A DNA stretch of 64,000 nucleotides from Candidatus Staskawiczbacteria bacterium RIFOXYB1_FULL_37_44 (GCA_001822065.1 MHPJ01000026.1:5281-69280); one strand, 5' to 3'. Positions 4,097 through 29,445 are shown, numbered from the stretch's first letter. A program made the numbers and translations. The notes: generated from the letters alone by a model not told the origin.

Positions 4097-6211
4097 ATGG
4101 AATTGCCCTCGCAATATAATGCAAAAGATGTAGAGGATAAAATTTATAAACTCTGGGAAGAGAGCGGTTTTTTTAATCCCGATAATTTACCTATCAATAA
4201 AATTCGAAATTCGAAATTAAAAATTCGAAATTTCTGTATTATAATGCCTCCAGCAAACGCCAACGGAAATCTGCACGCAGGACATGCTTTGGTTATGACG
4301 ATTGAAGACATTATGACCCGATATAAAAGAATGCGCGGATTTAAAACTTTATGGCTTCCTGGGCTAGATCATGCCGGTTTTGAAACTCAAGTTGTTTACG
4401 AAAAAAAACTTGAAAAAGAAGGAAGATCTCGCTTTCAAATTGAACCTGAACAACTTTACAAAGAAATTTTTGAATTTACAGAAAATAACAAAAAAAACAT
4501 CAAAAACCATGTTAAAAAAATGGGAGCCAGTTGTGACTGGTCCCGTGAAAAATTTACATTGGACAAAGATATTATAAAAGTTGTATATGAAACTTTTGAA
4601 AAATTAAAAAAAGACAAATTAGTTTACAGGGGTAAAAAAATAATCAATTGGTGTCCAAAACACCAAACTTCCCTTTCAGATCTAGAAACCAGCGACACGG
4701 AAAAAACAGACAAATTTTATTATTTAAAATATGGCCCCTTTACAATTGCCACAGCCAGGCCCGAAACAAAATTTGGCGACAAATATGTTGTAATGCATCC
4801 AAAAGATAAAAGATACAAAGATTACACGCATGGCCAAAAAATAGAACTGGAATGGATAAACGGTAAAATTACTGCAACAATTATAAAAGACGAGGCTATT
4901 GATATAGATTTTGGAACCGGAGTTATGACAATTACTCCGTGGCACGACGCAACCGATTTTGAAATTGCTGAAAGGCACAATTTGGATAAAGAGCAAATTA
5001 TAGATTTTTATGGAAAACTTTTGCCAATTGCCGAAGAATTTTCGGGAATGAAAATTTTAGAAGCCCGGGCAAAAATTATTGAAAAACTTCAGTCAAAAGG
5101 CTTGGTTGAAAAAATTGAAGAAAATTACAAACACATTGTTAAAACTTGCTACAAATGCAATTCTTTAATAGAACCTCAAATAAAAGAGCAGTGGTTTTTA
5201 AAAATGAAACCCTTGGCAGCGCCTGCCATAAAAGCAATTGAAAAAAACCAAATAAAATTTATTCCAAGCCACTACAAAAAGATTGCCATGCATTGGCTGA
5301 AAAATATTATTGATTGGAACATTTCACGGCAAATTGTTTGGGGAATTCCTATTCCCGGAGATGAAGAAGGCCAAGTTTTTGACACGTGGTTTTCTTCCGG
5401 ACAATGGCCATATGCTACACTAAAAACAACAGGAAAAAATGATTTTAAAACTTTTTTTCCAACAGATGTTATGGAAACCGGCGGCGATATAATTTTTTTC
5501 TGGGTCTCAAGAATGATTATGCTTTCGCTTTACACAACAAAAAAAATTCCTTTTAAAAATGTTTATTTGCACGGGATGGTTTTAGACGCCAAAGGCCAAA
5601 AAATGTCTAAAAGCAAAGGTAACGTAATAAACCCCTTAGAACTAGCAGAAAAATATGGCGCTGATGCTTTGCGCATGGGATTGGTGGTTGGGAATACTCC
5701 CGGCACTTCCCTGCCGCTGGATGAAAATAAAATAAAAGGCTATAGAAATTTTGCCAATAAAATTTGGAACGCGTCACGGTTTGTTTTGCAGCAAACCGCG
5801 GAAGTGTCATTGCGAGGAGGGAGCGAAGCGACTGACGTGGCAATCCAGAGTAATAGATTGCCACGTCGCTCCGCTCCTCGCAATGACAGACTAACAAAAA
5901 AAGATAAGAGAATATTGAACGATTTTAAAAAACAAGCAAAAGAAATTACAAAAGATATGGACAATTACAGGTTTTATTCTGCCGCTGAAAAAATTTATCA
6001 TTATTTTTGGCACACATTCTGCGACAAAATTATTGAAGACAGTAAAAAGGGAGAAGTTTCGCAAGCAACGCTTTTGGAAATTTTGACAGATTGTTTAAAA
6101 ATACTCCATCCATTTATGCCCTTTATAACCGAAGAAATCTATCAGCAGTTGCCTCCGCCAGCTGGCGGAAAAAAACAAAAGTGTTTAATGATTGAAAAAT
6201 GGATTTTGTAA
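4097..6211 (+). CDS. valS: class I aminoacyl-tRNA synthetase, ValS-like (valyl-tRNA synthetase)
   Basis: PPANANGNLHAGHA (HIGH-type) and KMSKSKGNV (KMSKS) motifs. Also carries in-frame inserts: TTCGAAA heptamer repeats at 4199-4233, family B at 5805-5888, and a CCGCCAGCTGGCGG palindrome at 6155-6168. Confidence 0.6.
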   Translation: MELPSQYNAKDVEDKIYKLWEESGFFNPDNLPINKIRNSKLKIRNFCIIMPPANANGNLHAGHALVMTIEDIMTRYKRMRGFKTLWLPGLDHAGFETQVVYEKKLEKEGRSRFQIEPEQLYKEIFEFTENNKKNIKNHVKKMGASCDWSREKFTLDKDIIKVVYETFEKLKKDKLVYRGKKIINWCPKHQTSLSDLETSDTEKTDKFYYLKYGPFTIATARPETKFGDKYVVMHPKDKRYKDYTHGQKIELEWINGKITATIIKDEAIDIDFGTGVMTITPWHDATDFEIAERHNLDKEQIIDFYGKLLPIAEEFSGMKILEARAKIIEKLQSKGLVEKIEENYKHIVKTCYKCNSLIEPQIKEQWFLKMKPLAAPAIKAIEKNQIKFIPSHYKKIAMHWLKNIIDWNISRQIVWGIPIPGDEEGQVFDTWFSSGQWPYATLKTTGKNDFKTFFPTDVMETGGDIIFFWVSRMIMLSLYTTKKIPFKNVYLHGMVLDAKGQKMSKSKGNVINPLELAEKYGADALRMGLVVGNTPGTSLPLDENKIKGYRNFANKIWNASRFVLQQTAEVSLRGGSEATDVAIQSNRLPRRSAPRNDRLTKKDKRILNDFKKQAKEITKDMDNYRFYSAAEKIYHYFWHTFCDKIIEDSKKGEVSQATLLEILTDCLKILHPFMPFITEEIYQQLPPPAGGKKQKCLMIEKWIL
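4199..4233. repeat. tandem ATTCGAA heptamer repeats in frame in valS (encode RNSKLKIRN)
   Basis: Copies of the TTCGAA palindrome; the same repeat sits inside murE at 28269-28298. Confidence 0.7.
5805..5888. repeat. family B full palindromic element (84 bp), in frame in valS (encodes SLRGGSEATDVAIQSNRLPRRSAPRNDR)
   Basis: Long inverted repeat GTCATTGCGAGGAGGGAGCGAAGCGACTGACGTGGCAATC ... GATTGCCACGTCGCTCCGCTCCTCGCAATGAC. 84 bp equals 28 codons. Confidence 0.9.
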
Positions 6212-6936
6212 TAATACTTTACATAATTTTTGGCATACTCCCTTCTTTAGCTTGGCTTTCCTATTATTTAAGGAAAGACGCGCACCCTGAACCCAAGGGA
6301 ATGATTTTAAAAATATTCTTATGGGGCGCGCTGATAACCGTGCCGGTGTTTTTTGTGCAAATTGGGCTTTCGTATTTGCTTGGAAAAATTAATCTAAGCC
6401 CTTTGTTAAATTCTTTAATATATTGGTTTTTAGTGATTGCTTTTTCCGAAGAATTTTTTAAATTTCTGGTAATAAAATTTCGCGTAATAAACAGCCCGCA
6501 CTTGGACGAACCATTAGATATTATGCTTTATATGGTTATTGCCGCTCTTGGCTTTGCCGCCTTAGAAAACATTCTTTATTTATTTGCGCCAATAGGCGAA
6601 ATGTCTTTTAACCAGCTAATTGATCGCACTTTAATTATAAGTTTTATAAGATTTATAGGGGCGACTTTTTTGCACACTTTATGCTCGGCGGTTGTTGGGT
6701 ATTCATTGGCTATTTCTTTTTGCCAGGCAAAAAGAAAATATGCGCCCATTGCAATTGGTTTAATTACAGCTACCCTCTTGCACGGAGCCTATGATTTTTC
6801 TATAATGACATTAGACGGGTACGCAAAATTTTTAATTCCCGTAATTATTATTATAACTCTTGCTGTTTTAGTTTTTTCAGGGTTTGACAAACTCAAAAAA
6901 ATGAAAAGCACATGCAAGTTAAATTTAATTAAATAA
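6199..6936 (+). CDS. PrsW/CPBP-type intramembrane metalloprotease family membrane protein
   Basis: Multi-TM with EEFFKF (EExxK), FLHTLCSA and HGAYDF motifs. Confidence 0.5.
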   Translation: MDFVIILYIIFGILPSLAWLSYYLRKDAHPEPKGMILKIFLWGALITVPVFFVQIGLSYLLGKINLSPLLNSLIYWFLVIAFSEEFFKFLVIKFRVINSPHLDEPLDIMLYMVIAALGFAALENILYLFAPIGEMSFNQLIDRTLIISFIRFIGATFLHTLCSAVVGYSLAISFCQAKRKYAPIAIGLITATLLHGAYDFSIMTLDGYAKFLIPVIIIITLAVLVFSGFDKLKKMKSTCKLNLIK

Positions 6937-6942
6937 AATAAT

Positions 6943-7368
6943 ATGGCAAAAAAAATATCCGCCCAAGGCGGACCCGCCTCGGGCGGGAAAGCAGAAGAAA
7001 AAAAAGAAATGCCGGTTGGTTCGGGAGAAATTTTCGACCAAGAAGGAGAATTAGTTGTTGATGTTTTTGAAACCGGCGCGGAGTTTGTTGTTTCTTCGGC
7101 AATTGCCGGAGTGCAAATTAAAGATTTGGACATATCCTTGGAAAAAGATATGATGGTAATTAAAGGAACTCGTTGCGACCCGCACGAGCATAATGATAAA
7201 AAATATTTTTACCAGGAATGTTATTGGGGCCCTTTTTCCAGAAAAATTATATTGCCTGAAAATATAGACATAGACAAGGCAGACGCGCAAATGGACAAAG
7301 GAGTTTTAACAATTAAAATCCCCAAAAACGAAACAGCCCCAAATAAAATCGGCATAAAAGTAAGCTAA
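6943..7368 (+). CDS. Hsp20/alpha-crystallin family small heat-shock protein
   Basis: ACD-like segments VDVFETGAEFVV...VIKG...GVLTIKIPK. Confidence 0.6.
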   Translation: MAKKISAQGGPASGGKAEEKKEMPVGSGEIFDQEGELVVDVFETGAEFVVSSAIAGVQIKDLDISLEKDMMVIKGTRCDPHEHNDKKYFYQECYWGPFSRKIILPENIDIDKADAQMDKGVLTIKIPKNETAPNKIGIKVS

Positions 7369-7377
7369 TTTAAAAAT

Positions 7378-7734
7378 ATGACAGAAGCAACTCTTACAAA
7401 AAAAGATATCAAAGAACTTTTGGGCGACCAAACAAAACAAATTGAACAACGGTTATCGGATCAAACAAAACAAATTGAACAACGGTTATCGGATCAAACA
7501 AAACAAATTGAACAACGGTTATCGGATCAAACGGATGTTATTTTGACTGCTGTTGATGAAAGAATAAAAGCTCTGGATTTAAAATTTACTGAGAAATTTG
7601 ATAAACTTACTACTACTCTTGATAATTTTTTAAAAAGAATGACAGATATTGAAGACGAGTTTACAATGATGCGCAACGATATAAACAGAATTAAAAAAGC
7701 TATCAAAGAAAAACTCGGCGTAGAACTATTTTAA
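7378..7734 (+). CDS. hypothetical coiled-coil protein containing three perfect 33-nt tandem repeats (DQTKQIEQRLS x3)
   Basis: Triplicated repeat at 7426-7524. Confidence 0.4.
   Translation: MTEATLTKKDIKELLGDQTKQIEQRLSDQTKQIEQRLSDQTKQIEQRLSDQTDVILTAVDERIKALDLKFTEKFDKLTTTLDNFLKRMTDIEDEFTMMRNDINRIKKAIKEKLGVELF
7426..7524. repeat. 3 x 33-nt perfect tandem repeat (in frame)
   Basis: gatcaaacaaaacaaattgaacaacggttatcg repeated three times. Confidence 0.9.
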
Positions 7735-7807
7735 ACTTTTAAGTTTATAAATAAAAAATCACTATTAAAATTCAGTGATTTTTTATTACTATCCAAAATT
7801 TTTATTG

Positions 7808-7889
7808 TGCCGGCGGTGGGACTCGAACCCACAACTCTTGCGAGATTAGTTCCTAAAACTAACGCGTATTCCAATTCCGCCACGCCGGC
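7808..7889 (-). tRNA. tRNA-Leu (anticodon UAG), type II with long variable arm
   Basis: Reverse complement: acceptor GCCGGCG/CGCCGGC, anticodon loop TTTAGGA, T-arm GTGGGTTCGAGTCCCAC; 82 nt. Confidence 0.8.
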
Positions 7890-7931
7890 GTAAATTAACA
7901 TAATTATAGCTGTAAGTGAAAAAGTAGTAAA

Positions 7932-8215
7932 GGGATTGACAATGCATACTCTTATATGCTATAATAAATTTAGTACAGGTTTGAGTTGCCAAATGTCTTC
8001 CAAACGATTTTGTTTATGGTTTGCGGGCGAAAATTTGGAATTATGAGGAGGTTTATCAACGAAGTGATAAGCCGACGAGTAATTGCAAATTTACAGCCCA
8101 AAACATTACAAAAGAGTTGAAGGTCATTTGGCAATTCAAACCGTTGGCTCATTGAAAATGGTTGAATTTCTATTTCAGCACAAGGAGTGCAGGGACAGCT
8201 GTTTTACGGTGAGCT
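7932..8215 (+). promoter_or_regulatory. promoter (TTGACA/TATAAT) plus conserved leader, copy 1; interrupted by a roughly 135-bp insertion bounded by TTGCCAAATG/CATTTGGCAA
   Basis: Shares several near-identical motif blocks (listed under the copy-2 entry) with the region upstream of the 10331 gene. Confidence 0.55.
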
Positions 8216-8998
8216 TTGGAGGGTTTAGAGATGCGTAATTTCTATCTGATGGTTGTGGTGGCGATGGTGGTTTGCTTGGCGGGTTGCAATTGGTTCGGTC
8301 CAGACGCGGCGCATGACCAGTCCGTCGCCAGGGAAGCTCGGGCCAACGAAAGGGCGCAGATTGACGTAGCTATCGCCGAGGATCTCCGCCAAAAGGAAGC
8401 GGCCCGGAAATCAGCCGAGGAATATCGGCGGACTCATGAAACGCTGGAAGAGGTGGCGCTCGTGCAAGGAACGCATGCCACCAACTCCTGTTCCATCCAG
8501 ATCGTTCGGAAAGACACCCCAATCAACGTACGCGCCGGTAAATGTGCCGACATTTACGAAACTGGGGAGGCCGTCCAAAAAAGGCTTGCGGGCCAAGCTG
8601 TGCTTGACGATGTTCGGCTAAAGGGCTTGCAGGACGAGATGGCCCGAGCCGAAACGGTTCGTGAGGAAAAACAGCGGGAAGTCGACGACCTCAAGGCAAC
8701 GATTGGCGAAATGAAAAAGTCTTTGGCCGTCGCCGAAGCACAAGCCAAGGCCGATCGACAGAACGCCGAGCTCGCTAATGAGATTGCCCTACAAAGGCAA
8801 GTCCTTGGCGCAGCACAAACCAATCTAGCCGAGAAAACCGCGGCGCTCGCTAAGAAAGAGGCGGAGATGGCCGCCGTAAACGCCAAACTGGACAAAATCC
8901 AGAAAGACGTGAACGCGCCGATGCGGGTTTCCGTTAAGGACACCGACGCATGCGGTCGGGAAACAAACTGGACAATGGATCTCCGGAAGGCCAACTAG
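8216..8998 (+). CDS. high-GC lipoprotein-signal coiled-coil protein (hypothetical)
   Basis: GC content is far above the surrounding DNA; LAGC lipobox; long coiled coil; terminator hairpin plus T-run at about 9027-9072. Confidence 0.5.
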   Translation: MEGLEMRNFYLMVVVAMVVCLAGCNWFGPDAAHDQSVAREARANERAQIDVAIAEDLRQKEAARKSAEEYRRTHETLEEVALVQGTHATNSCSIQIVRKDTPINVRAGKCADIYETGEAVQKRLAGQAVLDDVRLKGLQDEMARAETVREEKQREVDDLKATIGEMKKSLAVAEAQAKADRQNAELANEIALQRQVLGAAQTNLAEKTAALAKKEAEMAAVNAKLDKIQKDVNAPMRVSVKDTDACGRETNWTMDLRKAN

Positions 8999-9073
8999 GT
9001 CATCGCAGTTGCGCAACGCGCGCAAGACGGATAGGCCCGAGGTTCTCAATTTGAGAATCCCGGGTCTCTTTTT

Positions 9074-18952: not shown

Positions 18953-18992
18953 AAATTACGGTTTTTTGCCGAACGGCAAAAAACCGTAATTT
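18953..18992. repeat. family D 40-bp palindrome, inverted relative to the copy at 18291
   Basis: Centre is GCCGAACGGC here versus GCCGTTCGGC at 18291. Confidence 0.9.
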
Positions 18993-19141
18993 ATATAACT
19001 TGGTGCGAATACGTTGGTGTAAAAACTACTGGCTTGCAATAATTAAAATATAGTGTATTATAGGGTAATTAGTAATTAACACTGCTGGCCTGCAGCAGAA
19101 GAGACAAATAAACAGGTGTTTTATTTTGCATTAATACTTAT

Positions 19142-20236
19142 ATGACAAAAGAAAATAATCCGCCAGCTGGCGGAAAAAAAACCGCAGAAGCAATTAATCC
19201 CCTTCAAGTTGGGGCTACTATTGAAGGAAAGGTTGTAGCAAGAGACCGCTCGTCTCTTTTTATTGATTTAGGAATTCACGGAACCGGCATAATTTACGGC
19301 AGAGAATTTTACAGTGTAAAAGATGTAATAAAAAATCTTGATATTGGAGATAAGGTTTTTGCCAAAATTGTTGAGGTTGAAAATGACGAAGGCTATAGAG
19401 AACTTTCATTGAGAGACGCCACAAAAGAAATTAGCTGGCAAAGATTAAAAGAATTAAAAGACAGCGGACAAATTTTGAGTGTAAGAATTACCGGCGTAAA
19501 CAAAGGCGGACTTTTGACGGCCATAGACAATATACAGGCATTTTTGCCTGTATCGCAATTGGCTCCAGAACACTACCCCAGAGTAATTGACGCCGACAAG
19601 CAAAAAATATTAAAAGAATTGCAAAAATTTATCGGCAAAACTTTGGAAGTTAAAATTCTTGATTTGCTTGCTCAAGAAAATAAGTTAATTTTATCTGAAA
19701 AAGCAAAGTCAGAAGAAAAAACAAAAGAAACTCTAAAAAATTATTCCAAAGGCGACACAATTGACGGCGAAATAACCGGCATTGCAGACTTTGGCGCTTT
19801 TATAAAGTTTCCTTTTCCAGCAGAAAATAAAAATGACCAAATTGAAGGCTTAATCCATATATCGGAATTGGACTGGCAATTGGTTGAAAATCCGGCTGAA
19901 GTTGTAAAAGTCGGCGAAACTGTAAAAGCAAAAATAATAGACATAAATAACAATCAAGTTTTCCTTTCCTTAAAAGCGTTAAGAGCAAATCCTTGGGAAG
20001 AAATTGAAAAGCAATACAAAAAAAGCGATGTAATAAAAGGGAAAGTGACTAAATTTTCGGCTTTCGGCGCGTTTGTGGAAATAATGCCAAAGATCAGAAG
20101 CCTATGCCACATTTCCGAATTTGAATCAAAAGAAAAAATGGAAGAACAATTAAAACTTGGCGAAACTTACGATTTTCAAGTTTTGTTAATTGAACCAAAA
20201 GAGCACAGAATGAGCTTAAAATTGGTTGCAAAATAA
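19142..20236 (+). CDS. rpsA: 30S ribosomal protein S1 (short form with several S1 domains)
   Basis: Repeated S1-domain pattern (G..V.G.V......G.FV.L). In-frame CCGCCAGCTGGCGG palindrome at 19160-19173 encodes PPAGG. Confidence 0.75.
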   Translation: MTKENNPPAGGKKTAEAINPLQVGATIEGKVVARDRSSLFIDLGIHGTGIIYGREFYSVKDVIKNLDIGDKVFAKIVEVENDEGYRELSLRDATKEISWQRLKELKDSGQILSVRITGVNKGGLLTAIDNIQAFLPVSQLAPEHYPRVIDADKQKILKELQKFIGKTLEVKILDLLAQENKLILSEKAKSEEKTKETLKNYSKGDTIDGEITGIADFGAFIKFPFPAENKNDQIEGLIHISELDWQLVENPAEVVKVGETVKAKIIDINNNQVFLSLKALRANPWEEIEKQYKKSDVIKGKVTKFSAFGAFVEIMPKIRSLCHISEFESKEKMEEQLKLGETYDFQVLLIEPKEHRMSLKLVAK

Positions 20237-20287
20237 TTACTCAAAATTGCACAAAACAGTTCCCATTCGCGGAGCTGTTTTTTGTTG

Positions 20288-20320
20288 CATTTGACGCCCA
20301 TTTTTACAAGATGTATAATT
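20288..20320 (+). promoter_or_regulatory. sigma70-like promoter (TTGACG, 17 nt spacer, TATAAT) upstream of the 20351 gene
   Basis: Preceded by a terminator hairpin plus T-run at about 20255-20283. Confidence 0.5.
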
Positions 20321-20350
20321 AATGAATTTAAAAAATAATTTTACAAAATT

Positions 20351-22495
20351 ATGGCAGAGCCAGGAGAAAAATCAAAGTCAGCCGAGGAATACGCCGAAGA
20401 ATTAACAAAGGCTATTTTTGGATCTGATGCAACTCCAACTACTGAATCAACCCCGGCTCCAACCACAGAGCCAGCACCCGTTGCAACTGCAGAACCTGCG
20501 ACCATCGCTGTGCCGCCGGTAATTGAAACAAAATCGACAGGGCCCGAAGTGCAGCCGACTGAAGATCCTATCACGAAAGCGATAAGAGAAAATAAAGAAC
20601 GAATAATAAAAGATCGGGAAGAAAGAGCCACTGCCGCAGCAGCGGCAAAAGTAAAACCGGCGATTACGCCTTCGCCGGTACTGGTAAAGCCTGCTGATGG
20701 AATTATTTCTGCTGAAGATCGAAAAAAAATTGCTAAAGACGAGGCAGAAAGGAAGGCGAAAAAAGCAACAAAAACTCCACCAACTACTGAGGCAAAACCA
20801 GAGACCACTCCCCCAACTCCAGACACTGCTCCGAAACCAGTTTCAACCACAGAACTCGCCGAGCCTGCGCCAGCAGAAGCTGAAACAACAATATCTGAAA
20901 GTCCGGCGGAAAAATATTTGAAAGAAAAACAAAAGACGCTTTATGAAAAGCTTACAAATGAAGCAAGGCTGGAAAAACCTTTATGGGAAGCCGGAGCAAA
21001 AATCTTAGATGCCGATATAGACCAAAAGCATGAAGAATTTTTGCTAAAATGGTTTAATGACAACAAAAATAGTCCGGAAATCCAAAGATTTGGCATTACT
21101 GAAAACATTTCCGATGCGCAAAAAAGAAAAATTGCCATTGATAACGGTGCATTTACAAAGCTAATTTCAGATGAAAAATATGCAAAAGAATTTCAGGAAA
21201 TTGAAAACCTAAGCAATTTAAGGCTGGATTTTAATTCTGAAAATGTTTCGCTTGCAAGCCAGTTTTTAATGCTTAATCATTTAGAGCAAAAACAAAACCA
21301 AACAGAAGAATTTTTGAAAATCAGACTTGAATTGGCTAAAAAGGCAACAGGAATTGATATTGAAGCTACGGCTGAAAAAGAACTATCGGGTCCTGATTTT
21401 CAAACAAAAGAAAATTATGTTGATACGCAGACTGCAGGATTAGCGCAAAAAATAAATTCTGAAAGGAACAAAGAATTGGTGGACATTGAGTGGCACGAAT
21501 ATATGAGCATGGGAGAAAAAGAAAGGAGAGAATATTGCAGTGAATTGGGGTGGAGGCTGGAAATTCCCCGGAAAGTGTTTGACAAGCTTTCAAAAAATAA
21601 AAACTACACGCCAGAACAGGCAGACGAGGCATTTCAAAATTATAACCGCGAAATGTTTGGTAAAGCAATAACCATGATTGCTGCAAAAAATGGCATAGAG
21701 GGGCAGGCTTTTTACGGACTTTTAGAACAAGGATATAAACCGCACGAAGCTAAAAGTAAATTTTCTCTTTTTAAAATTTTTACAATGAAAATGTCGTGGA
21801 CAGAAATACCCAACAAGGGCGGGTCTGTTTATGCCAGCGATGGAACAAAAGAAGGTTTTGCCAGTTTTCTGAAGAAAACAGGAGAAGATTATGGAAAAAG
21901 TTTTTCGGCAAAGGCAAAAGAAGAACTAGAAAATGAGTGGCAAAATAATTATGATTTAAAAAAGTCAGAGAGAATAATGGCAATGCTTTCGCAAACTACT
22001 GAAAATGCCAAAAAACACATTGTAGAAAATTATGAAGCAATAAAAAACAGGCTTATTGAAGAGGCAGAAACAAAAAGGGTAAAGTCAAAAACAGAAAAAG
22101 AACTAAAAGAAATAGAGAAAGAATTTGGCGATGACGGCAAGGCAAAAAAGCCGGAGAAAAGAAAAACCATGTTTGAAAGTTTTTCAGAACTTGCCGGCGA
22201 TGCCTTAAAAGATGATGACGGGAACAGAAAAGGAGGATTAGAAAAACTTACAGGAGAGCTGAAAGATGACGCAGATATTTTAAGCGATTACTTTAATAAA
22301 AAGTTGGGAGTTAAAGAGATGACTTCTGCTAAATTAAAACAACTACTAAAAGAAAAAGCAATACCCGAGGACGATTATAAAGAAAAATGGAATGATGATT
22401 ATGGATTACTTGATTGGTTTACCGGAGTAATGGTAGACAGATTATGGGAAGCAAAACCAAAAAAGAAAAAACCTGTAAAAGCTAAAACTAAATAA
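20351..22495 (+). CDS. large hypothetical protein with a Pro/Thr/Ala-rich N-terminal region and a KE-rich body
   Basis: 714-aa ORF; low complexity; no recognisable domain. Confidence 0.5.
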   Translation: MAEPGEKSKSAEEYAEELTKAIFGSDATPTTESTPAPTTEPAPVATAEPATIAVPPVIETKSTGPEVQPTEDPITKAIRENKERIIKDREERATAAAAAKVKPAITPSPVLVKPADGIISAEDRKKIAKDEAERKAKKATKTPPTTEAKPETTPPTPDTAPKPVSTTELAEPAPAEAETTISESPAEKYLKEKQKTLYEKLTNEARLEKPLWEAGAKILDADIDQKHEEFLLKWFNDNKNSPEIQRFGITENISDAQKRKIAIDNGAFTKLISDEKYAKEFQEIENLSNLRLDFNSENVSLASQFLMLNHLEQKQNQTEEFLKIRLELAKKATGIDIEATAEKELSGPDFQTKENYVDTQTAGLAQKINSERNKELVDIEWHEYMSMGEKERREYCSELGWRLEIPRKVFDKLSKNKNYTPEQADEAFQNYNREMFGKAITMIAAKNGIEGQAFYGLLEQGYKPHEAKSKFSLFKIFTMKMSWTEIPNKGGSVYASDGTKEGFASFLKKTGEDYGKSFSAKAKEELENEWQNNYDLKKSERIMAMLSQTTENAKKHIVENYEAIKNRLIEEAETKRVKSKTEKELKEIEKEFGDDGKAKKPEKRKTMFESFSELAGDALKDDDGNRKGGLEKLTGELKDDADILSDYFNKKLGVKEMTSAKLKQLLKEKAIPEDDYKEKWNDDYGLLDWFTGVMVDRLWEAKPKKKKPVKAKTK

Positions 22496-22500
22496 AATTT

Positions 22501-22713
22501 ATGGCAAAATCTTTTTTATCAAATAAAAATTTTCAGGAATTTATTTCCAAGCTAAATATAAGCGAGGCAGATAAAAATATTTTAACTTCCAAAGTCCCCC
22601 AAATGGATAAAGAAGAACGTTTACAAATTTTGGAAGTTTTAAAAAATATCTATTTATTAGATCTGGAACAAACGCAAGCTTTGGAGAAAATCCAAAAAAA
22701 TTGGCAAGATTAA
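22501..22713 (+). CDS. hypothetical small protein
   Basis: 70-aa ORF immediately downstream of, and co-directional with, the 20351 gene. Confidence 0.3.
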   Translation: MAKSFLSNKNFQEFISKLNISEADKNILTSKVPQMDKEERLQILEVLKNIYLLDLEQTQALEKIQKNWQD

Positions 22714-22758
22714 ATTAAAAGAGTATAATTAAATAATTATTAAATTATTTTTAAAATT

Positions 22759-23922
22759 ATGGAAGGAGAACCTCAGCCAAATGAAGAAGCGCCCCAACAA
22801 GAAAATAGCGAAGCCGGAAAAAAATTAATTGATGTGGGAATAAGTCCTAGCCAAATTGAACAAATAAAAATACCTGGTACTGCTGTTGCGCCAACTGAAA
22901 TACCCGCAGAAGATCCGCCGCCGCTTCCACAGGAAAAAGAGCAAGCGAGCATAGAGCAAGAACCACCTCCATTGCCTGAACAAGCTAAAGCTGTTCAGGA
23001 ACTATCGCCTGAAGAAAAAGCAGAAAAGGCTGAAAATGCAAAAAATGAATTAATGAGTTGGACAAAAAAGTTAGAAGGCATAGAAGTAATGAATGACCAT
23101 GAAAAAGAACGTAAATTAATTAATCATCCAAAATTACCGGAAGTTTTTAAAACTGCTACTGGAAGGGAATTAAAACCGGAAGTAAGAACTGTGGCAGAAG
23201 CAAGTGTTAAGGAAGAAAAAGTTAAAGATTTTTTGGCTGAAGAGCATAAAGAAGAAAAAATGAATGCAAGAATAGGCAAGGCAATTGAAAAAAGGAGCGA
23301 TTCAATTTTAGAGCAAAAAAGAGGAGAAAAAACGCCGGAAGATTTTAAAACAGTAATTGATAATAAAATGAAGGAGCTGTTTGAAGCAGGCATATCAATT
23401 GAAAAATCAATTTTTTGCGAGTTAATGAATCAAGGGTACAAAATGGAAGACGCGCAAATTAAAAAAGGCGTGTTTCGCGGGGTAAAAGGAATATCTGTTG
23501 TGAAGACGTCTTTAGATGGAGTTCCGCAAAAAAATGAAAAACCAGTATTTATTGATCTTAAAAAAATTAGCGAAATACTTTTGCAGGCGGTAACAGATTT
23601 AACAACCGAAGGCGGAAGATTAGCAGAGGTTGAATTACAAGCAATAGTAAATAAAGGAAAAGAAAGGTGGAAACAAGAAAAGCATGAAGCTATAAAACAA
23701 GTAGTAAGAACCGAGGTTACAAAAATTACAACGGAAAGGCAACAAACTATTGAGACAGAAAAATTAAGAGTAGAGGCTCAACAAAAAGAAAAAGAAGCAA
23801 TTGCTCAAGCCAAAGCTGAAAAAAGTGCAAAGCGAAAGAAAAAAATGACACGAAATCCTGCCATGCCTGCAAAGAAAAAACTTGCTACATCCAAATCAGT
23901 AAGAAAAAAAGTGAAAGCCTAA
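22759..23922 (+). CDS. hypothetical KE-rich protein
   Basis: 387-aa ORF followed by terminator-like hairpin plus T-run at about 23935-23966. Confidence 0.45.
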   Translation: MEGEPQPNEEAPQQENSEAGKKLIDVGISPSQIEQIKIPGTAVAPTEIPAEDPPPLPQEKEQASIEQEPPPLPEQAKAVQELSPEEKAEKAENAKNELMSWTKKLEGIEVMNDHEKERKLINHPKLPEVFKTATGRELKPEVRTVAEASVKEEKVKDFLAEEHKEEKMNARIGKAIEKRSDSILEQKRGEKTPEDFKTVIDNKMKELFEAGISIEKSIFCELMNQGYKMEDAQIKKGVFRGVKGISVVKTSLDGVPQKNEKPVFIDLKKISEILLQAVTDLTTEGGRLAEVELQAIVNKGKERWKQEKHEAIKQVVRTEVTKITTERQQTIETEKLRVEAQQKEKEAIAQAKAEKSAKRKKKMTRNPAMPAKKKLATSKSVRKKVKA

Positions 23923-23967
23923 AAATAACTTCGCAAAAAACAGCTCTGAAAACGGGCTGTTTTTTAG

Positions 23968-24041
23968 TGTCATTCCCGCGGACGCGGGAATCCAGATTAA
24001 ATTAAAGTACTCTGGATCCCCATTTCCATGGGGATGACAAG
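23968..24041. repeat. family A (inverted orientation, GTCATTCCCGCGGACGCGGGAATCCAG) plus variant (CTGGATCCCCATTTCCATGGGGATGACA)
   Basis: Intergenic, downstream of uvrB. Confidence 0.85.
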
Positions 24042-24048
24042 TATAAAA

Positions 24049-26013
24049 TTATTTTAGTTTAGAAATTAGGTCGCGGAGTTCGACCGCTCTTTCAAAGTCT
24101 AAATTTTTAGCGGCAATTTTCATTTCTTTTTCTAAAAGTTTTTTATCGTGAACTAATTCAAATTCCGAAACAACATCTTCTTTTTTTGAAAATCCCCACT
24201 CTCTAATATCTGAAACAATTGTTTTTGGAATTATTTTATTTTTTTTATTGTAAGCTTCTTGAATTTTTCTGCGCCGGTTAATTTCGCTAATAGCAGATTG
24301 CATAGACATTGTTGTTTTATCTGCGTACAAAATTACTCTGCCTTGCAAATGCCTGGCAGCCCGGCCCATTGTTTGAATTAGGGTTGTTTTGTTGCGTAAA
24401 AAGCCTTCTTTATCCGCATCCAAAATTGCAACCAAGGAAACTTCGGGCAAGTCAATCCCCTCTCTTAATAAATTTATTCCAACCAGCACATCAAATTCTC
24501 CCTGCCTTAGTTTTTTTAAAATTTCCGGTCTTTCCATTGTTTTAATTTCAGAATGCAAATATTGGGTTTTAATTTTATGCTCTGTTAAATAATCTGCAAT
24601 TTCTTCGGACAATCTTTTGGTAAGCGTTACAACCAGTACACGATGTTTTTTTGAAATTTCTTTCTTAATCTCTTCTATTAAATCTTTAATCTGATTTTCT
24701 GTTTTTTTTATTTCAATAGACGGCTCTAACAATCCGGTTGGCCGGATTAATTGTTCTATAATATTTTTACCGGTTTTTTGCTTCTCAAAGTCGGCCGGAG
24801 TTGCAGAAACATAAATTGTTTGTTTTTGTCTTTTCTCAAATTCTGTAAAAGTTAAGGGTCGGTTGTCCACCGCAGAAGGCAGGCGAAATCCAAAATTAAT
24901 TAAAGTTTCTTTTCTTATTCTGTCTTGCGCAGACATTGCCCTAATTTGCGAAACAGAAATATGCGATTCATCAATAAACATCAAAGAGCCGTCCTTATTA
25001 AAATAACTGAAATAATCAACCAATGAAAACGGGGCGCTTCCCGGTTTTCTAAATTCCAAATGGCTGGAATAGTTTTCAATGCCGTGGCAAGAGCCAGTTT
25101 CTTTTAAAAGCTCTAAATCATAATTTGTTCTTTGCTCTAACCTTTCTGCTTCTAATAATTTTTTTTCTTTATTTAAAACTGCCAATCTTTCCTGCAGTTC
25201 TAATTTTATATTTTCAATTGCAATATTTATTTTACTTTGCGGAGCAACCCAAAAGGTGGCTGGGAATAGTTTGTAGTTTGCAATTGGTGTCATTGCGAGC
25301 GAGCCCGCAGGTCGAAGATCCTGTAAGGGCGAGCGTGGCAATCCAGAGTGTAACGAATAGATACTGTCTCCCTCAAATTCAACGCGTAATATTTTTTCTC
25401 CGGTAACAATATAAATTTCAATAATATCTCCCCTAACGCGAAAAGTTCCGGGCTTGAATTCTATATCATTTCTTTGGTATTGCAGGTTTGTTAAAAGCAA
25501 AATAAAATCTTTACGTTTTATTTTTTGTCCAATTTTTATTTCTAAAGAGACATTTTCATAATTTTCAGGCGAGCCAATGTTATATATGCACGAAACCGAA
25601 GCAACCACAATTACATCTTTTCTTTGCGTTACATCTTGCACGGCAGCGTGGCGTAGCCTGTCAATTTCTTCGTTTATTTTTGCGTCTTTTTCTATATATG
25701 TGTCGCTTTGCGGAATATAGGCTTCGGGCTGGTAATAATCGTAATAAGAAACAAAATAATGCACTGCATTGTTTGGGAAAAATTCTTTAAATTCTTGATA
25801 TAGTTGGGCGGCCAAAGTTTTGTTTGGGGATATTACAAGTGTTGGCTTGTTTATTTTTTCAATTACATTTGCCATTGTCATTGTTTTTCCAGATCCGGTA
25901 ACTCCCAAAAGCACTTGGTCTTTTACTCCCAATTTTAAATTTTCAGACAGCTGTTTTATTGCCCGCGGTTGATCTCCTGCCGGTTTGAATTTTGATTTTA
26001 GTTCAAACTTCAT
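24049..26013 (-). CDS. uvrB: excinuclease ABC subunit B (start trimmed to MKFELKSKFKPAGDQP)
   Basis: PAGDQP, GVTGSGKT and helicase motifs. The listed 35-aa N-terminal extension is read-through of repeat elements. Internal in-frame family B insert at 25288-25348. Confidence 0.9.
   Translation of the reverse strand: MKFELKSKFKPAGDQPRAIKQLSENLKLGVKDQVLLGVTGSGKTMTMANVIEKINKPTLVISPNKTLAAQLYQEFKEFFPNNAVHYFVSYYDYYQPEAYIPQSDTYIEKDAKINEEIDRLRHAAVQDVTQRKDVIVVASVSCIYNIGSPENYENVSLEIKIGQKIKRKDFILLLTNLQYQRNDIEFKPGTFRVRGDIIEIYIVTGEKILRVEFEGDSIYSLHSGLPRSPLQDLRPAGSLAMTPIANYKLFPATFWVAPQSKINIAIENIKLELQERLAVLNKEKKLLEAERLEQRTNYDLELLKETGSCHGIENYSSHLEFRKPGSAPFSLVDYFSYFNKDGSLMFIDESHISVSQIRAMSAQDRIRKETLINFGFRLPSAVDNRPLTFTEFEKRQKQTIYVSATPADFEKQKTGKNIIEQLIRPTGLLEPSIEIKKTENQIKDLIEEIKKEISKKHRVLVVTLTKRLSEEIADYLTEHKIKTQYLHSEIKTMERPEILKKLRQGEFDVLVGINLLREGIDLPEVSLVAILDADKEGFLRNKTTLIQTMGRAARHLQGRVILYADKTTMSMQSAISEINRRRKIQEAYNKKNKIIPKTIVSDIREWGFSKKEDVVSEFELVHDKKLLEKEMKIAAKNLDFERAVELRDLISKLK
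25288..25348. repeat. family B half-element in frame in uvrB (encodes LHSGLPRSPLQDLRPAGSLAMT)
   Basis: TGTCATTGCGAGCGAGCCCGCAGG...GCGTGGCAATCCAGAGTG. Confidence 0.85.
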
Positions 26014-26034
26014 GTTAAAGTAATTATAACACAC

Positions 26035-26117
26035 TGTCATTGCGAGGAGCCCGCAGGCGACGTGGCAATCTAGAGTATGTGATAAAACTCTGGATTCCCG
26101 CTTTCGCGGGAATGACA
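26035..26117. repeat. composite family B half plus family A element filling the uvrB-ruvA divergent intergenic region
   Basis: TGTCATTGCGAGGAGCCCGCAGGCGACGTGGCAATCTAGAGT ... CTCTGGATTCCCGCTTTCGCGGGAATGACACC. Confidence 0.9.
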
Positions 26118-26126
26118 CCTAAAAAT

Positions 26127-26687
26127 ATGATAGCATTTTTGGAGGGTAAAATTATATTAAAAAAAGATAAGTTTATTATTTTAGAAACAAATGGCGTTGG
26201 CTATAAAGTTTTTTTGAACCGCCAAACCTTATTAAAACTACCAGAAATTGGCCAAGTTATCAAGGTTTTTTGTTTTCATAATATTAAAGAGGACGTCTCT
26301 GATTTATACGGATTTTTAAGCTACGACGAGCTTGAATTTTTTGAAATTTTAAATGACATACATGGAGTAGGGCCAAAAGCTGCTTTAGAAATTTCTGTGC
26401 TTGGACCTTTAGAAAAAATAAAAGACAAAATTTTATCCCAGGATGAAAAACTATTTGCAGGCATTCCGGGCATTGGAGCCAAGCGCGCATCTTCTATTAT
26501 ATTAGAACTTACCGGTAAAATTATGGCTTCTCCCGCCAGAGCCAAGGGTCCAGTTGATGATGCCGAAGACACTTTAGTTGCTCTTGGTTTTTCGCACCAG
26601 CAAGCCAAATCCGCATTAGAAAGCATACCCCACGACATCCCGCCCGAATCCCGCGTCAAACAAGCCTTAAAATTTTTAGGAAAATAA
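26127..26687 (+). CDS. ruvA: Holliday junction branch migration protein RuvA (start trimmed to MIAFLEGK)
   Basis: OB domain, HhH motifs (IPGIGAKRA), C-terminal domain; upstream extension is repeat-derived. Confidence 0.8.
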   Translation: MIAFLEGKIILKKDKFIILETNGVGYKVFLNRQTLLKLPEIGQVIKVFCFHNIKEDVSDLYGFLSYDELEFFEILNDIHGVGPKAALEISVLGPLEKIKDKILSQDEKLFAGIPGIGAKRASSIILELTGKIMASPARAKGPVDDAEDTLVALGFSHQQAKSALESIPHDIPPESRVKQALKFLGK

Positions 26688-26771
26688 GAGTCTTTACAAA
26701 GAAAAAATAAGGTGATAATGTAACAAAACCTCTTTAAGAAGCGGTTTTGTTTTTTCTGGTTCTTTCACAAT

Positions 26772-27062
26772 TTGGAGGGCTTTAGGGTAATGGAGACTAA
26801 TTTACTTGTTGAAGGCAGGATGGCAAACGGGAAAAGAGAAATTCATGTTTCCTTCTGCCACAAAAGAGCAGATAAAGAAATTATCATCTCTCACGACGAT
26901 AATTTCCGACCCCTCTATGCAATTATCAGTGAAGTTTTAATTCCCATGCTTATGAAAGAGTATAAATTGGAAAAAGCTGAAGCAACAAAGCTAATTAACA
27001 AAGGTTTAAATTGTTGCGGGCTTTCTGAACTTAACGTGCCCAATGTGGCAAGAGTTTGTTAA
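26772..27062 (+). CDS. hypothetical small protein
   Basis: 96-aa ORF with no recognisable domain. Confidence 0.3.
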   Translation: MEGFRVMETNLLVEGRMANGKREIHVSFCHKRADKEIIISHDDNFRPLYAIISEVLIPMLMKEYKLEKAEATKLINKGLNCCGLSELNVPNVARVC

Positions 27063-27137
27063 ACTTTGGGCGTTTTGTCCCGTCATTGGCGGGGCTTTTT
27101 TTTACGCAAAATATGTGATATTATTTGTATAGTTTCT

Positions 27138-27226
27138 GTCATTGCGAGGAACAAAGTGACGAAGCAATCTATAGTAAAAGTATAAATTCTGGATTGCCAC
27201 GCTCGCTTCGCTCGCTCGCAATGACA
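27138..27226. repeat. family B full element (long inverted repeat) upstream of murE
   Basis: TGTCATTGCGAGGAACAAAGTGACGAAGCAATC ... TCTGGATTGCCACGCTCGCTTCGCTCGCTCGCAATGACA. Confidence 0.85.
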
Positions 27227-27235
27227 CCAGAGGGT

Positions 27236-28474
27236 ATGATAATTAAAAGTTTAGTTAAAAAAATAATAGGAAAAAATTTGTTGAGCCTTTATCATTTTAA
27301 GCTGGCTTTGCTGGGAGCTTTTTTATTTGGTTTTCCAGGGTATAGTAAAAATTTTAAAATTATTGGAGTTACCGGAACCAGCGGGAAATCAACAACATGT
27401 GATTTAATTGTGCGAATTTTGGAAGAAAATGGAGAAAAGGTTGCCTCTGTCTCAACAATACGGTTTAAAATTGGAGAAAAAGAATGGGAAAATAAATATA
27501 AAATGACTATGCCCGGCCGTTTTGTAATTCAAAAATTTTTAAGCCAAGCAAAAAATGCCGGATGTAAATTTATTGTTTTAGAAGTTACTTCAGAGGGCAT
27601 AAGGCAATTTAGGCACAAGTTTATAAATTTTGATACAGCGGTTTTTACAAATTTAAGTCCGGAGCATATTGAGTCTCACGGCGGGTTTGAAAATTACAGA
27701 AATGAAAAATTAAAGTTATTTAAAATAACAAAAAATATTCATATAATAAACGCCGATGATAAAAACTCAAAGTATTTTTTAGATATTCCTGCAAAAAAGA
27801 AAATCAGTTTTAGTTTTAAAGATGCAGAAAATTACGACTTTAAATTAAATTTAATTGGCGATTTTAATATTTTAAATGCTTTGACCGCAATTTCTGTTGC
27901 CAGAGCTTATGGCATTAATTTTGAAGTTTGTAAAAAAGCGCTTGAAAAAGCAAAAGGAATTCCAGGCAGAATGGAAGTTATTTCAAATCCGCCAGCTGGC
28001 GGACCAAAAGTTATTGTTGACTACGCTCATACGCCAGAGCAACTTGAAGCCGTTTATAAGGCTCTGGATTCCCGCTTTCGCGGGAATGACACGGGCAGGC
28101 TTATTTGTGTTTTAGGAAGTTGCGGCGGAGGCAGAGACAAATGGAAAAGACCGGTTTTGGGAAAAATTGCAGAAAAATATTGCAAGGAAATAATTATTAC
28201 AAACGAAGATCCATATGACGAAAATCCAAATTCGATTATGGACGAAATCGAATCTGGATTTTTAAAAACTCGAAATTCGAAATTCGAAATTCGAAATTAT
28301 GAGAAAATTTTAGACAGAAAAGAGGCAATAAAAAAAGCAATTAATATTGCAAAACAAGGGGAAACTGTTATAATCACGGGCAAAGGGTCAGAGCCTTGGA
28401 TGTGCATTAAAAATGGAAAAAAAATACCATGGAGCGACAAGCAAATCGCAAAAGACGCGCTAAATAAAATTTAA
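27236..28474 (+). CDS. murE: Mur ligase family protein, MurE-like (start trimmed to MIIKSL)
   Basis: GVTGTSGKSTT P-loop, DYAHTPEQLEAV and a C-terminal Mur ligase domain. Three in-frame inserts: CCGCCAGCTGGCGG at 27989-28002, family A at 28064-28092 (LDSRFRGND), heptamers at 28269-28298 (RNSKFEIRN). Confidence 0.65.
   Translation: MIIKSLVKKIIGKNLLSLYHFKLALLGAFLFGFPGYSKNFKIIGVTGTSGKSTTCDLIVRILEENGEKVASVSTIRFKIGEKEWENKYKMTMPGRFVIQKFLSQAKNAGCKFIVLEVTSEGIRQFRHKFINFDTAVFTNLSPEHIESHGGFENYRNEKLKLFKITKNIHIINADDKNSKYFLDIPAKKKISFSFKDAENYDFKLNLIGDFNILNALTAISVARAYGINFEVCKKALEKAKGIPGRMEVISNPPAGGPKVIVDYAHTPEQLEAVYKALDSRFRGNDTGRLICVLGSCGGGRDKWKRPVLGKIAEKYCKEIIITNEDPYDENPNSIMDEIESGFLKTRNSKFEIRNYEKILDRKEAIKKAINIAKQGETVIITGKGSEPWMCIKNGKKIPWSDKQIAKDALNKI
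28064..28092. repeat. family A element in frame in murE
   Basis: CTGGATTCCCGCTTTCGCGGGAATGACAC. Confidence 0.9.
28269..28298. repeat. four tandem TCGAAAT heptamers in frame in murE
   Basis: CTCGAAATTCGAAATTCGAAATTCGAAATT. Confidence 0.85.
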
Positions 28475-28485
28475 AAATAAAATTT

Positions 28486-29445
28486 ATGAAAATACAAGAC
28501 ATTTATAATTTAATGATAAAAATGGGAATGGATGTTGATTTTAGGGGCAGAGAAGGCGTGCAAAAACTTTTGGATAATAAAAAGAAAAAATTTGAGAAAT
28601 TGAGCGAGAAAGAAAAAGAAGATCTTGATAAAGACGCTTTAGAAAATCCATATTTAGACTCTGGAGTTTATAATATTTCAGATGACAAAGAAATAAAAAG
28701 AGTTTTAGTGGGAATAGATATTTCACCGGCAGAAATTTTAATTGCAAAAGAGCTGGGCGATATTGATTTGGTAATTGCCCATCATCCTGTTGGAAAAGGT
28801 TTGGCGCAATTGGCAGATGTTATGGATTTGCAGGCCGATGTTTGCAATTATTACGGCGTGCCAATAAATGTGGCAGAAGGATTGATGCGCGAAAGAATTT
28901 CTGAAGTAGCCAGAGGAGTAAATTCTTCAAACCATCAAAGGACAGTTGACGCCGCAAAATTAATGAAAGTTAATTTAATGAATTCGCATACGCCTTGTGA
29001 TAATTTGGCTGCCAAATTTTTAAAAAATTTGGTTGAGAATCCGCCAGCTGGAGAAAAACCCGAGACAGTCGGCGAGCTGATAAATATTTTAAAAGAAATT
29101 CCAGAATACAAAGAGGCGATGAAAATTGGAGTTGGTCCTAAAATTTTTGTGGGAACTGCAGATAACCGATGCGGAAAAATTGCTTTGTCTGAAATTACAG
29201 GAGGCACAGAAGGCTCCCCAAAACTTTATGAAAAAATGGCGCAGGCCGGAGTTGGCACGGTTGTCGGAATGCATATTTCTGAAGAACACAAAAAGGAAGC
29301 AGAGCTGGCTCACGTGAACATTGTAATTGCCGGGCATATTTCTTCCGATTCTTTGGGCGTAAATTTATTTGTTGACGAACTTGAAAAGCAAGGCATTGAA
29401 ATTGTGGCATGCTCCGGTTTTACCCGCTTCTCAAGGGTAAAATAA
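28486..29445 (+). CDS. Nif3-like dinuclear metal centre protein (YbgI/GTP cyclohydrolase 1 type 2 family-like)
   Basis: VIAHHPV and C-terminal GHISSD motifs; in-frame CCGCCAGCTGGAG variant palindrome at 29041-29053. Confidence 0.45.
   Translation: MKIQDIYNLMIKMGMDVDFRGREGVQKLLDNKKKKFEKLSEKEKEDLDKDALENPYLDSGVYNISDDKEIKRVLVGIDISPAEILIAKELGDIDLVIAHHPVGKGLAQLADVMDLQADVCNYYGVPINVAEGLMRERISEVARGVNSSNHQRTVDAAKLMKVNLMNSHTPCDNLAAKFLKNLVENPPAGEKPETVGELINILKEIPEYKEAMKIGVGPKIFVGTADNRCGKIALSEITGGTEGSPKLYEKMAQAGVGTVVGMHISEEHKKEAELAHVNIVIAGHISSDSLGVNLFVDELEKQGIEIVACSGFTRFSRVK

Follow-up and report, generated by a model that had tools for sequence, protein, structure and literature searches.

A 16-bp GC-rich palindrome recurs in frame in unrelated genes of a Candidatus Staskawiczbacteria genome and is probably a miniature hairpin repeat copied at the DNA level

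Why should a short, perfect, GC-rich palindrome recur, always in the same reading frame, in unrelated genes of an AT-rich bacterial genome? The question is raised by 64,000 nucleotides (nt) of DNA from Candidatus Staskawiczbacteria bacterium RIFOXYB1_FULL_37_44 (MHPJ01000026.1:5281-69280), the genome of an ultra-small bacterium of the Candidate Phyla Radiation (CPR) from the Rifle aquifer. This whole stretch, with a GC content of 36.6%, is referred to here as the window, and its positions are 1-based; loci of relatives and of other organisms carry labels beginning with L, and rows of MurE orthologues labels beginning with P. In every gene tested, comparison with orthologues showed the palindrome to be inserted, and it is probably a miniature GC-rich hairpin repeat that is copied to new places at the DNA level, being selfish or neutral and without a function for its host.

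Comparison of the flanks across copies gave a common core of 16 bp, the perfect palindrome TCCGCCAGCTGGCGGA, which is exact in valS, rpsA (encoding protein S1) and murE and decayed in a NIF3-like gene and in rsmA (Table 1). The identities of the host proteins were assigned as ValS (NF004349, 778 bits against a cut-off of 704), an S1 protein, MurE (TIGR01085), a NIF3-family protein (Pfam PF01784) and RsmA/KsgA (TIGR00755). All five copies are intragenic, AA precedes the core in four of them, and the density is approximately one copy per 13-21 kb, or three to five copies in 64 kb. Terminator-like palindromes aside, TCCGCCAGCTGGCGGA is the sole GC-rich perfect palindrome of at least 14 bp in the window, and its hairpin folds as RNA with -10.2 kcal/mol. 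Five matches with up to two mismatches were found against 0.03 expected from dinucleotide-preserving shuffles of the window, and none of 100 shuffles reached five. Each of the five copies starts at codon phase 0 (for rsmA, (63826-63340) mod 3 = 0) and encodes PPAGG where exact, PPAGE in the NIF3-like gene and PPDGG in rsmA. The original prediction of an exact 14-bp palindrome at three positions, recurring in a single frame and beyond chance, was thus borne out, with the core extended to 16 bp. Its variant copy at 29041-29053 does have one mismatch over those 13 nt but two over the full 14 nt, and the four genes that it listed are indeed unrelated but are joined by a fifth, rsmA, whose copy has one mismatch; moreover, the palindrome is not alone, as the window holds a much larger set of GC-rich hairpin inserts to which it belongs. 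The A-run that had been noted after the palindrome is present but is part of the pre-existing target, the empty orthologous sites reading AAA AAA or CCA AAA. The palindrome is non-random, and more widespread than the original prediction could show.

In murE the insertion is seen in both protein and DNA. About 116 of the 120 closest MurE orthologues (68-79% identity) are empty, mostly reading GRMEVVS-EN-P-K/ESPVK-VIVDYAHTP, and the four carriers comprise the query (P0001), two sequences with NPPAGGP (P0004 and P0028) and one with a decayed NSPVGGP (P0058). An empty murE site reads TCA GAA AAT CCA AAA (L125), while the filled site of the window reads AAT (CCG CCA GCT GGC GGA) CCA AAA, with 15 nt extra after AAT; two other filled copies hold CCG CCG GCT GGC GGA (L126) and CCG CCA GCC GGA GGA (L127), again 15 nt after AAT. 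The insert position aligns to a loop of the solved MurE structure 4bub. For S1, nearly all of 80 orthologous loci lack the insert and read M.KE(N)IIKK, the site being filled in two of the 80; the window copy begins 18 nt past the rpsA start codon, and CCGCCAATTGGCGG stands at the same position in L184. ValS orthologues read QQLP-(VKG/LRN/IKN/VNG)-KK, three variable residues taking the place of PPAGG for a net gain of two residues in the window, and the two NIF3 orthologues compared (L125 and L129) read VEE/IED-KKP, four residues fewer. The RsmA loop usually reads E-S-E-N-P-P-S-E, with PPAGG-type inserts in 13 of 116 orthologues, and the window copy has the direct-inverted-direct structure CCGCCA-GA-TGGCGG-A-CCGCCA. 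HSP20 orthologues mostly begin MAKKIK, without the double hairpin found in the window. Two of the five palindromes lie in protein tails (N-terminal in S1, C-terminal in ValS) and three in loops, one of MurE and those of NIF3 and RsmA that vary in length among orthologues.

The same sites appear to have been filled repeatedly in separate lineages. MurE carriers are scattered on a neighbour-joining tree, and at least nine lineages of RsmA carriers have nearest neighbours (70-79% identity) with an empty site. In L433 the rsmA site holds a perfect palindrome; of the 5 nt among 858 by which the near-identical sister strain L434 departs from L433, two lie within the rsmA copy (P = 0.005). In other lineages the same loops hold other GC-rich palindromes, such as PPEAGSRYGG and PPQRGPARGG, and the MurE loop holds palindromes of 33-36 nt (GTCCCGCC..GCGGGATCCCGC..GGCGGGA). 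In S1 of the closest relative, L131, and of L173, tandem 15-nt hairpins, TCCGCCCAAGGCGGA then TCCGCCTCGGGCGGA, contribute 30 nt in a different frame, the dimer being that of the window's HSP20 gene, and in L173 an exact PPAGG palindrome lies 6 nt before the start codon of HSP20. Where the S1 and HSP20 genes encode their N-termini, the window and L173 have the 30-nt dimer and the 15-nt palindrome the other way round. Once in place, the DNA motif shows no sign of selection, and orthologous copies appear to decay while the peptide stays. The three differences among the filled murE copies are all at synonymous third positions, at about the rate of the flanking codons, which suggests that the peptide is kept and the DNA palindrome is unprotected.

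What exactly is inserted, and where? Net length increases by 15 nt in MurE of L127, by 12 nt in the window's MurE and in S1, NIF3, RecJ and RsmA, by 6 nt in ValS, and by 30 nt where the double hairpins of HSP20 and S1 stand. Two cases lie in non-coding DNA. Compared with the window, the S1 leader of L146 holds 16 nt more, cleanly inserted, in the form of a related hairpin, TCCCGCCTTGGCGGGA. In L043, 8 nt of the anticodon stem of a tRNA-Lys(UUU) sequence are replaced by the 16-mer, GCAACTGC giving way to a sequence that contains GCCAGCTGGC; a palindrome insertion in a tRNA gene was considered for this locus and rejected, since the 16-mer lies in a shortened second copy of the gene's 5' part, with the intact gene approximately 130 nt downstream, an arrangement like that of an integration site. 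The base 5' of the element is always T, mostly within AAT or GAT, and the 3' side is CC or an A-run. Empty targets read AAAATCC/AAAA in murE, AAAATCC/CCAAA in recJ and AAT CCN CCN in rsmA; such targets often resemble the left end of the element, which is compatible with sequence-specific targeting and with microhomology-guided copying alike. A consistent target-site duplication was not seen, a CC repeat being possible only at murE and rsmA, with none at S1 or valS. From these junctions we infer a unit of 16 nt whose entry into A-rich DNA would follow a T and cost the target a few bases, in varying number.

To judge from its sequence, the palindrome belongs to a family of hairpins of the form (T)CCGCC-loop-GGCGG(A), of which there are 6 in the window (including the HSP20 double hairpin) and 46 in 818 kb from 80 related loci. 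The stems are constant and the centres vary (AGCT, AATT, CAA, TCG, TT and others). It is the AGCT type in particular that has been amplified in the window's genome, with three exact copies in 64 kb against two in 818 kb of relatives (P = 6e-4).

Copies also occur well beyond this lineage. A scan with ATCCGCCAGCTGGCGGA, taking one genome per species, returned at least 120 stretches. Among the matches listed, those in high-GC genomes are ordinary coding sequence in the RQLA frame, while 31 of the 40 copies of low-GC genomes that lie within open reading frames (ORFs) of at least 150 codons are in the PPAGG frame (P = 1.3e-8) and are spread over many CPR classes. The other two frames (RQLA and ASWR) and non-coding DNA hold copies as well, and many of the non-coding ones form the apex of a longer hairpin, for example GTCATTGCGA-palindrome-GAAGCAATC, in Bacteroidota, Falkowbacteria and a viral contig. 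In RecJ of Berkelbacteria, three carriers contrast with about 117 empty orthologues (..EK(I/L)PKAL..), and a 25-mer, AATCCGCCAGCTGGCGGACCAAAAG, is common to the filled RecJ site and the murE of the window. It was considered whether any GC-rich palindrome would be as common. Over all viral contigs the palindrome, with 56 matches, is within the range of four matched control palindromes (21-91), yet in viral-contig DNA below 50% GC it has 16 matches against 2, 2, 3 and 2. An Rfam scan of the whole window returned tRNAs and tmRNA only, leaving the repeats unmatched, and a search of a literature library gave nothing relevant on the palindrome sequence, on the peptides of its sister repeats or on REP-associated tyrosine transposases (RAYTs) and repetitive extragenic palindrome (REP) doublets forming hairpins (REPINs) in CPR bacteria.

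We regard the spread of a hairpin repeat at the DNA level as the probable explanation. A self-complementary 16-nt unit, T-CCGCC-AGCT-GGCGG-A, would enter AT-rich DNA directly after T, usually that of AAT or GAT and often ahead of CC or an A-run, with a few target bases variably lost. The survivors in essential genes would be those insertions that combine a net length divisible by three with a tolerant loop or terminus and the flexible PPAGG frame, not RQLA or ASWR, so that the frame bias could arise because the least harmful reading frame survives selection. After insertion the copy would evolve as ordinary coding sequence, its peptide being retained and its palindrome decaying. As to the agent, our tentative guess is a process specific for hairpins or single strands, for example a RAYT-like HUH tyrosine transposase acting in trans. 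It is doubtful, in turn, that the 16-nt hairpin is a truly mobile unit common to CPR classes and other low-GC phyla, pasted after (A/G)AT by a trans-acting process, which could be a RAYT-like HUH enzyme or the capture of hairpin oligonucleotides at breaks.

Candidate genes for such an enzyme exist in relatives, whose genomes code for a HUH-Y1 protein of 242 aa bearing the motifs YHIFNRG, MPNHFHFLL and YINAINP (PF01797, 29.7 bits; a model of REP-associated tyrosine transposases matched weakly). The gene lies directly after rsmA (L433 and L434) or adjoins rpsA (L184, L146 and others), and in a Saccharibacteria locus it is 0.9 kb from a palindrome copy. In L434 it is followed by a small GIY-YIG gene. 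Several points nevertheless weigh against the spread of a mobile hairpin. The RAYT-like genes of relatives are flanked by inverted hairpins centred on GTCNGAC (GGCATAGACCC repeats in L434) and not by the TCCGCC type, which is evidence against these being the cognate enzyme, and the window, which ends within rsmA, holds no transposase or other candidate enzyme; for both reasons a RAYT as the cognate enzyme found no support in the window or in these relatives. The net sizes vary (+6, +8, +12 and +15 nt), so that a single clean insertion rule is uncertain, and the one clean 16-nt case concerns the related hairpin instead of the AGCT palindrome. No presence/absence difference at any copy is seen among four contigs of the same population (99.8-100% identical), and the comparisons of empty and filled sites are between diverged orthologues, whose proteins are 63-81% identical and whose extra indels blur the junctions. 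The neighbour-joining trees are star-like, so that repeated loss or recombination could mimic repeated gain, and the scan pattern itself fixes two flanking bases (AT, on one side). Finally, several targets were already element-like (AATCC in murE and recJ, AAT CCN CCN in rsmA, GCAACTGC in the tRNA copy), a circumstance that homology-guided copying fits equally well or better.

Homology-guided patching or local template switching is the main rival, although we consider it unlikely. The palindrome would be copied from another copy, or folded back on a local CCGCCA, via microhomology (AATCC, CCAAAA), and would spread in replication or break repair by conversion to sites that are already similar. 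This would account for the resemblance of the empty murE, recJ and rsmA targets to the element's ends, for the direct-inverted-direct structure of the rsmA copy, for the change in the tRNA-Lys remnant and for the loss of target bases at junctions; the most element-like site is also the most often filled, with rsmA at 13/116 against murE at 4/120, recJ at 3/120 and S1 at 2/80 (raw counts, uncorrected for phylogeny), and the window encodes a family-X DNA polymerase with a PHP domain (Table 1). UvrB, RuvA and RecG are encoded there too and may be relevant if inserts arise in break or gap repair. However, the empty sites of S1, ValS and NIF3 are little or not element-like, a purely local fold-back cannot yield an identical 16-mer at unrelated sites, and apart from the 25-mer of recJ and murE no donor-recipient tract beyond the palindrome and a few bases was seen. 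An improbable alternative makes the palindrome a footprint or filler, either the remnant of a larger element with termini CCGCCAG...CTGGCGG or a self-complementary oligonucleotide captured in end joining. Family members agree in their outer bases and differ in the centre, and the variable loss of target bases, the non-coding outcomes that are not multiples of three (16 nt for 8) and the tandem units resemble end joining. On the other hand, 1.8 Mb of low-GC loci contain no full-length element with such termini, on which ground an excision footprint was rejected, the entry and exit of a large element in essential single-copy genes should kill, and an AGCT centre identical in well over 100 independent places is not expected of imprecise junctions.

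The original prediction had offered three accounts, namely a short mobile or recombinogenic palindrome, a recognition site and a selected peptide tag. The first is upheld by comparison with orthologues, which shows an insertion in each gene tested, by the recurrence at the same loops in separate lineages and by the in-frame copies in other CPR classes, and the other two fared poorly. A functional DNA or RNA site, whether for uptake, restriction-modification, methylation or a DNA-binding protein or as a regulatory hairpin of mRNA, is very improbable. The perfect palindrome does contain CAGCTG and forms a stable hairpin, it is in excess in low-GC DNA, and single copies lie close to the starts of the S1 gene and, in L173, of the HSP20 gene. 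Yet CAGCTG is neither enriched nor avoided in the window (18 observed against 15.9 expected, a ratio of 1.13), and the window encodes no DNA methyltransferase, restriction enzyme or transposase, so that the CAGCTG-type system whose search had been proposed was not found there; a restriction-modification or methylation target was rejected accordingly. An uptake sequence was likewise rejected, as the copies are far sparser than uptake sequences or HIP1 and close relatives are nearly without them (two exact copies in 818 kb). Synonymous decay of orthologous copies and the lack of an Rfam match also speak against a functional site. Separately, CTTAAG is absent from the window against 6.0 expected (Markov model, whole window), as are GCTAGC and CCTAGG, which may reflect avoidance of restriction sites. 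Scarcely credible, finally, is convergent acquisition by several proteins of a selected peptide module, (N)PPAGG, despite the common frame of five of five window copies and 31 of 40 elsewhere among the matches listed, and despite the MurE orthologues that keep the peptide as the DNA decays. Identity extends to the DNA level, with the same rare codons (CCG, GGC) across copies in a 37% GC genome; the proposed inspection of orthologues found the segment mostly absent from MurE, S1, NIF3, ValS and RsmA; further copies lie outside coding DNA or are read in one of the other two frames; and unrelated GC-rich palindromes occupy the same loops.

How does the favoured hairpin repeat compare with known systems? 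Rickettsia palindromic elements (RPEs) are of approximately 100-150 bp, form ten families and are restricted to Rickettsia, whereas the unit described here is 15-16 nt long, has no sequence relation to them and occurs in CPR bacteria of several classes. The likeness lies in palindromic repeats found in frame in many unrelated housekeeping genes of a small AT-rich genome, without a counterpart in orthologues and placed where the protein tolerates an extra segment (PMC10969869; Ogata et al., 2000). Thus the repeat in unrelated genes, the absence from orthologues and the frame kept in tolerant sites are all found here, and the size and homology of RPEs are not. Organelle genomes offer another parallel in the GC clusters of yeast mitochondria, the PstI palindromes of Neurospora, the double-hairpin elements of Allomyces and the hairpin repeats of sponges and placozoans, all of them short GC-rich palindromes in AT-rich DNA that can be in frame in genes, nested or in tandem. 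Those elements are organellar, usually at least 30-60 bp and family-specific; the present unit is smaller, and its host is a bacterium, free-living or episymbiotic. REPs are extragenic by definition and are imperfect palindromes of 20-40 nt with a conserved GTAG-type 5' tetranucleotide. The window resembles a REP/REPIN-RAYT system in its wealth of REP-like hairpins, as do the relatives in their RAYT-like genes flanked by inverted hairpins, but the palindrome is intragenic, perfect and 16 nt long, its sole constant neighbour is the 5' T, and it does not flank the RAYT-like genes. HIP1 of cyanobacteria (GCGATCGC) is likewise a short perfect GC-rich palindrome within and between genes; it has 8 bp, occurs about once per kb, is linked to a cognate methyltransferase and arises via substitution, whereas the present copies are of low density and are length insertions relative to orthologues, with no methyltransferase found in the window. 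Uptake sequences, such as the DNA uptake sequence (DUS) of Neisseria and the uptake signal sequence (USS) of Pasteurellaceae, are also short motifs over-represented in genes with a preferred frame, but they are not palindromic alone, appear at roughly one copy per kb and show conservation between related species, while the palindrome is nearly absent from close relatives. Transposable elements of the miniature inverted-repeat kind (MITEs) have terminal inverted repeats and target-site duplications and span 50-500 bp, unlike a 16-nt unit with no consistent duplication. Because the defining features fail in each case, the palindrome is not a member of the RPE, organellar, REP, MITE, HIP1 or uptake families; in behaviour its nearest counterparts are RPEs and the GC clusters and hairpins of organelles.

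Other repeats and features of the window are collected with the palindromes in Table 1. REP-like units of the form GTCATT[CG]C-hairpin-G[GC]AATC number at least 19, four REPIN-like doublets being formed, and several units are in frame in valS, tsaD, murE and rsmA; two doublets are translated in frame within essential genes, giving peptides such as RLPRRSAPRNDR and SLRGKSEATDEAIQSYRLPRRLLAPRNDE. Nine copies of a second hairpin repeat, GTCATTCCCGCGAAAGCGGGAATC(CAG), share one orientation regardless of gene strand. This repeat is in frame in murE (LDSRFRGND), tsaD and the ruvA ORF, and its insert is variably present in MurE orthologues, where it marks a second hotspot 25 residues past the palindrome. 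Two long perfect palindromes (AATTACGGTTTTTTGCCG..CGGCAAAAAACCGTAATT) flank a gene for 178 aa at a place where relatives have a RAYT-like gene, and two others, terminator-like and likewise long and perfect, have TTTTTTGCCTCGAGGCAAAAAA in common. The hairpin CTGCTGGCCTGCAGCAG in the rpsA leader is kept in all relatives examined and may be regulatory; in three relatives GC-rich hairpins follow it directly. Tandem repeats occur in a small gene with a coiled-coil-like product and near the valS start and the murE end. In the ruvA region, 15 substitutions in 140 nt relative to contigs of the same population that are otherwise 99.9% identical look like a short recombination tract, and gyrA contains an intein.

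Table 1. Positions of the palindrome copies, related repeats and other features (window coordinates unless a locus label is given).
Feature	Position	Gene or locus (strand)	Detail
Exact 16-bp TCCGCCAGCTGGCGGA in valS	6154..6169	4097-6211 (+)	codons 687-691 of 704, QQLP-PPAGG-KKQK; exact 14-mer CCGCCAGCTGGCGG at 6155-6168
Exact palindrome in rpsA (S1)	19159..19174	19142-20236 (+)	codons 7-11, MTKENN-PPAGG-KKTAEA; exact 14-mer at 19160-19173
Exact palindrome in murE	27988..28003	27221-28474 (+)	turn between GRMEV and VIVDYAHTP, S-N-PPAGG-PK; exact 14-mer at 27989-28002
Decayed copy TCCGCCAGCTGGAGAA in NIF3-like gene	29040..29055	28486-29445 (+)	VE-NPPAGE-KPE; 14-nt variant at 29041-29054
Decayed copy TCCGCCAGATGGCGGA in rsmA/ksgA	63825..63840	63340 to past window end (+)	FLE-LN-PPDGG-PPSE; 14-nt variant at 63826-63839
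30-nt double hairpin TCCGCCCAAGGCGGA-CCCGCCTCGGGCGGG in HSP20 gene	6958..6987	6943-7368 (+)	codons 6-15, MAKKI-SAQGGPASGG-K
REPIN-like doublets, 82-110 nt	5806-5887; 27138-27225; 62036-62145; 63660-63744	valS; just before murE;; rsmA	two inverted GTCATTGCGAG...GCAATC units
24-28 nt hairpin repeat GTCATTCCCGCGAAAGCGGGAATC(CAG)	1188-1211; 3597-3620; 17086-17109; 23969-23992; 26093-26116; 28067-28090; 43543-43566; 49201-49224; 52720-52743; 60612-60635		about 10 copies
RAYT-like HUH-Y1 genes in relatives	L433:1844-2572; L434:4002-4730; L184:9139-9810; L146:9092-9769; L051:5181-5816
Truncated tRNA-Lys(UUU) duplicate	L043:3988-4040	intact gene 4120-4196	holds the 16-mer
Family-X DNA polymerase gene	32800-34530	(+)	PHP domain
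Palindromes AATTACGGTTTTTTGCCG..CGGCAAAAAACCGTAATT	18291-18330; 18954-18993	flanked gene 18407-18943	178 aa
Terminator-like palindromes	39794-39831; 49232-49265		38 bp; 34 bp
rpsA-leader hairpin CTGCTGGCCTGCAGCAG	19090-19107; L146:9905-9960; L184:9935-9990
Three tandem 33-nt repeats	7429-7530	7378-7734	small, coiled-coil-like
7-nt tandem repeat (AAATTCG)n	4200-4227; 28270-28293	near valS start; near murE end
Possible recombination tract	26346-26483	ruvA region
gyrA with intein	12785-16504	(-)	1239 aa; PF14890 Intein_splicing between two DNA_topoisoIV matches

CPR (Patescibacteria) genomes are regarded as streamlined, yet dozens of GC-rich hairpin inserts are tolerated here, several of them within essential genes, namely valS, rpsA, murE, rsmA, tsaD and the HSP20 gene. 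Such inserts inflate variation in protein length, create spurious 'hypothetical' ORFs and can break assemblies, and they mark the loops of conserved enzymes that are tolerant of added residues. One exact 16-mer in the same frame in several CPR classes also provides a testable handle on horizontal spread or on a common insertion machinery. If the palindrome is truly mobile, it would be the smallest spreading repeat, setting a new lower size limit, and it could serve as a simple, datable marker of insertion and decay for uncultivated lineages. Together with its sister hairpins it would, if this holds true, rank among the major sources from which the streamlined proteins of CPR bacteria gain new loop residues.

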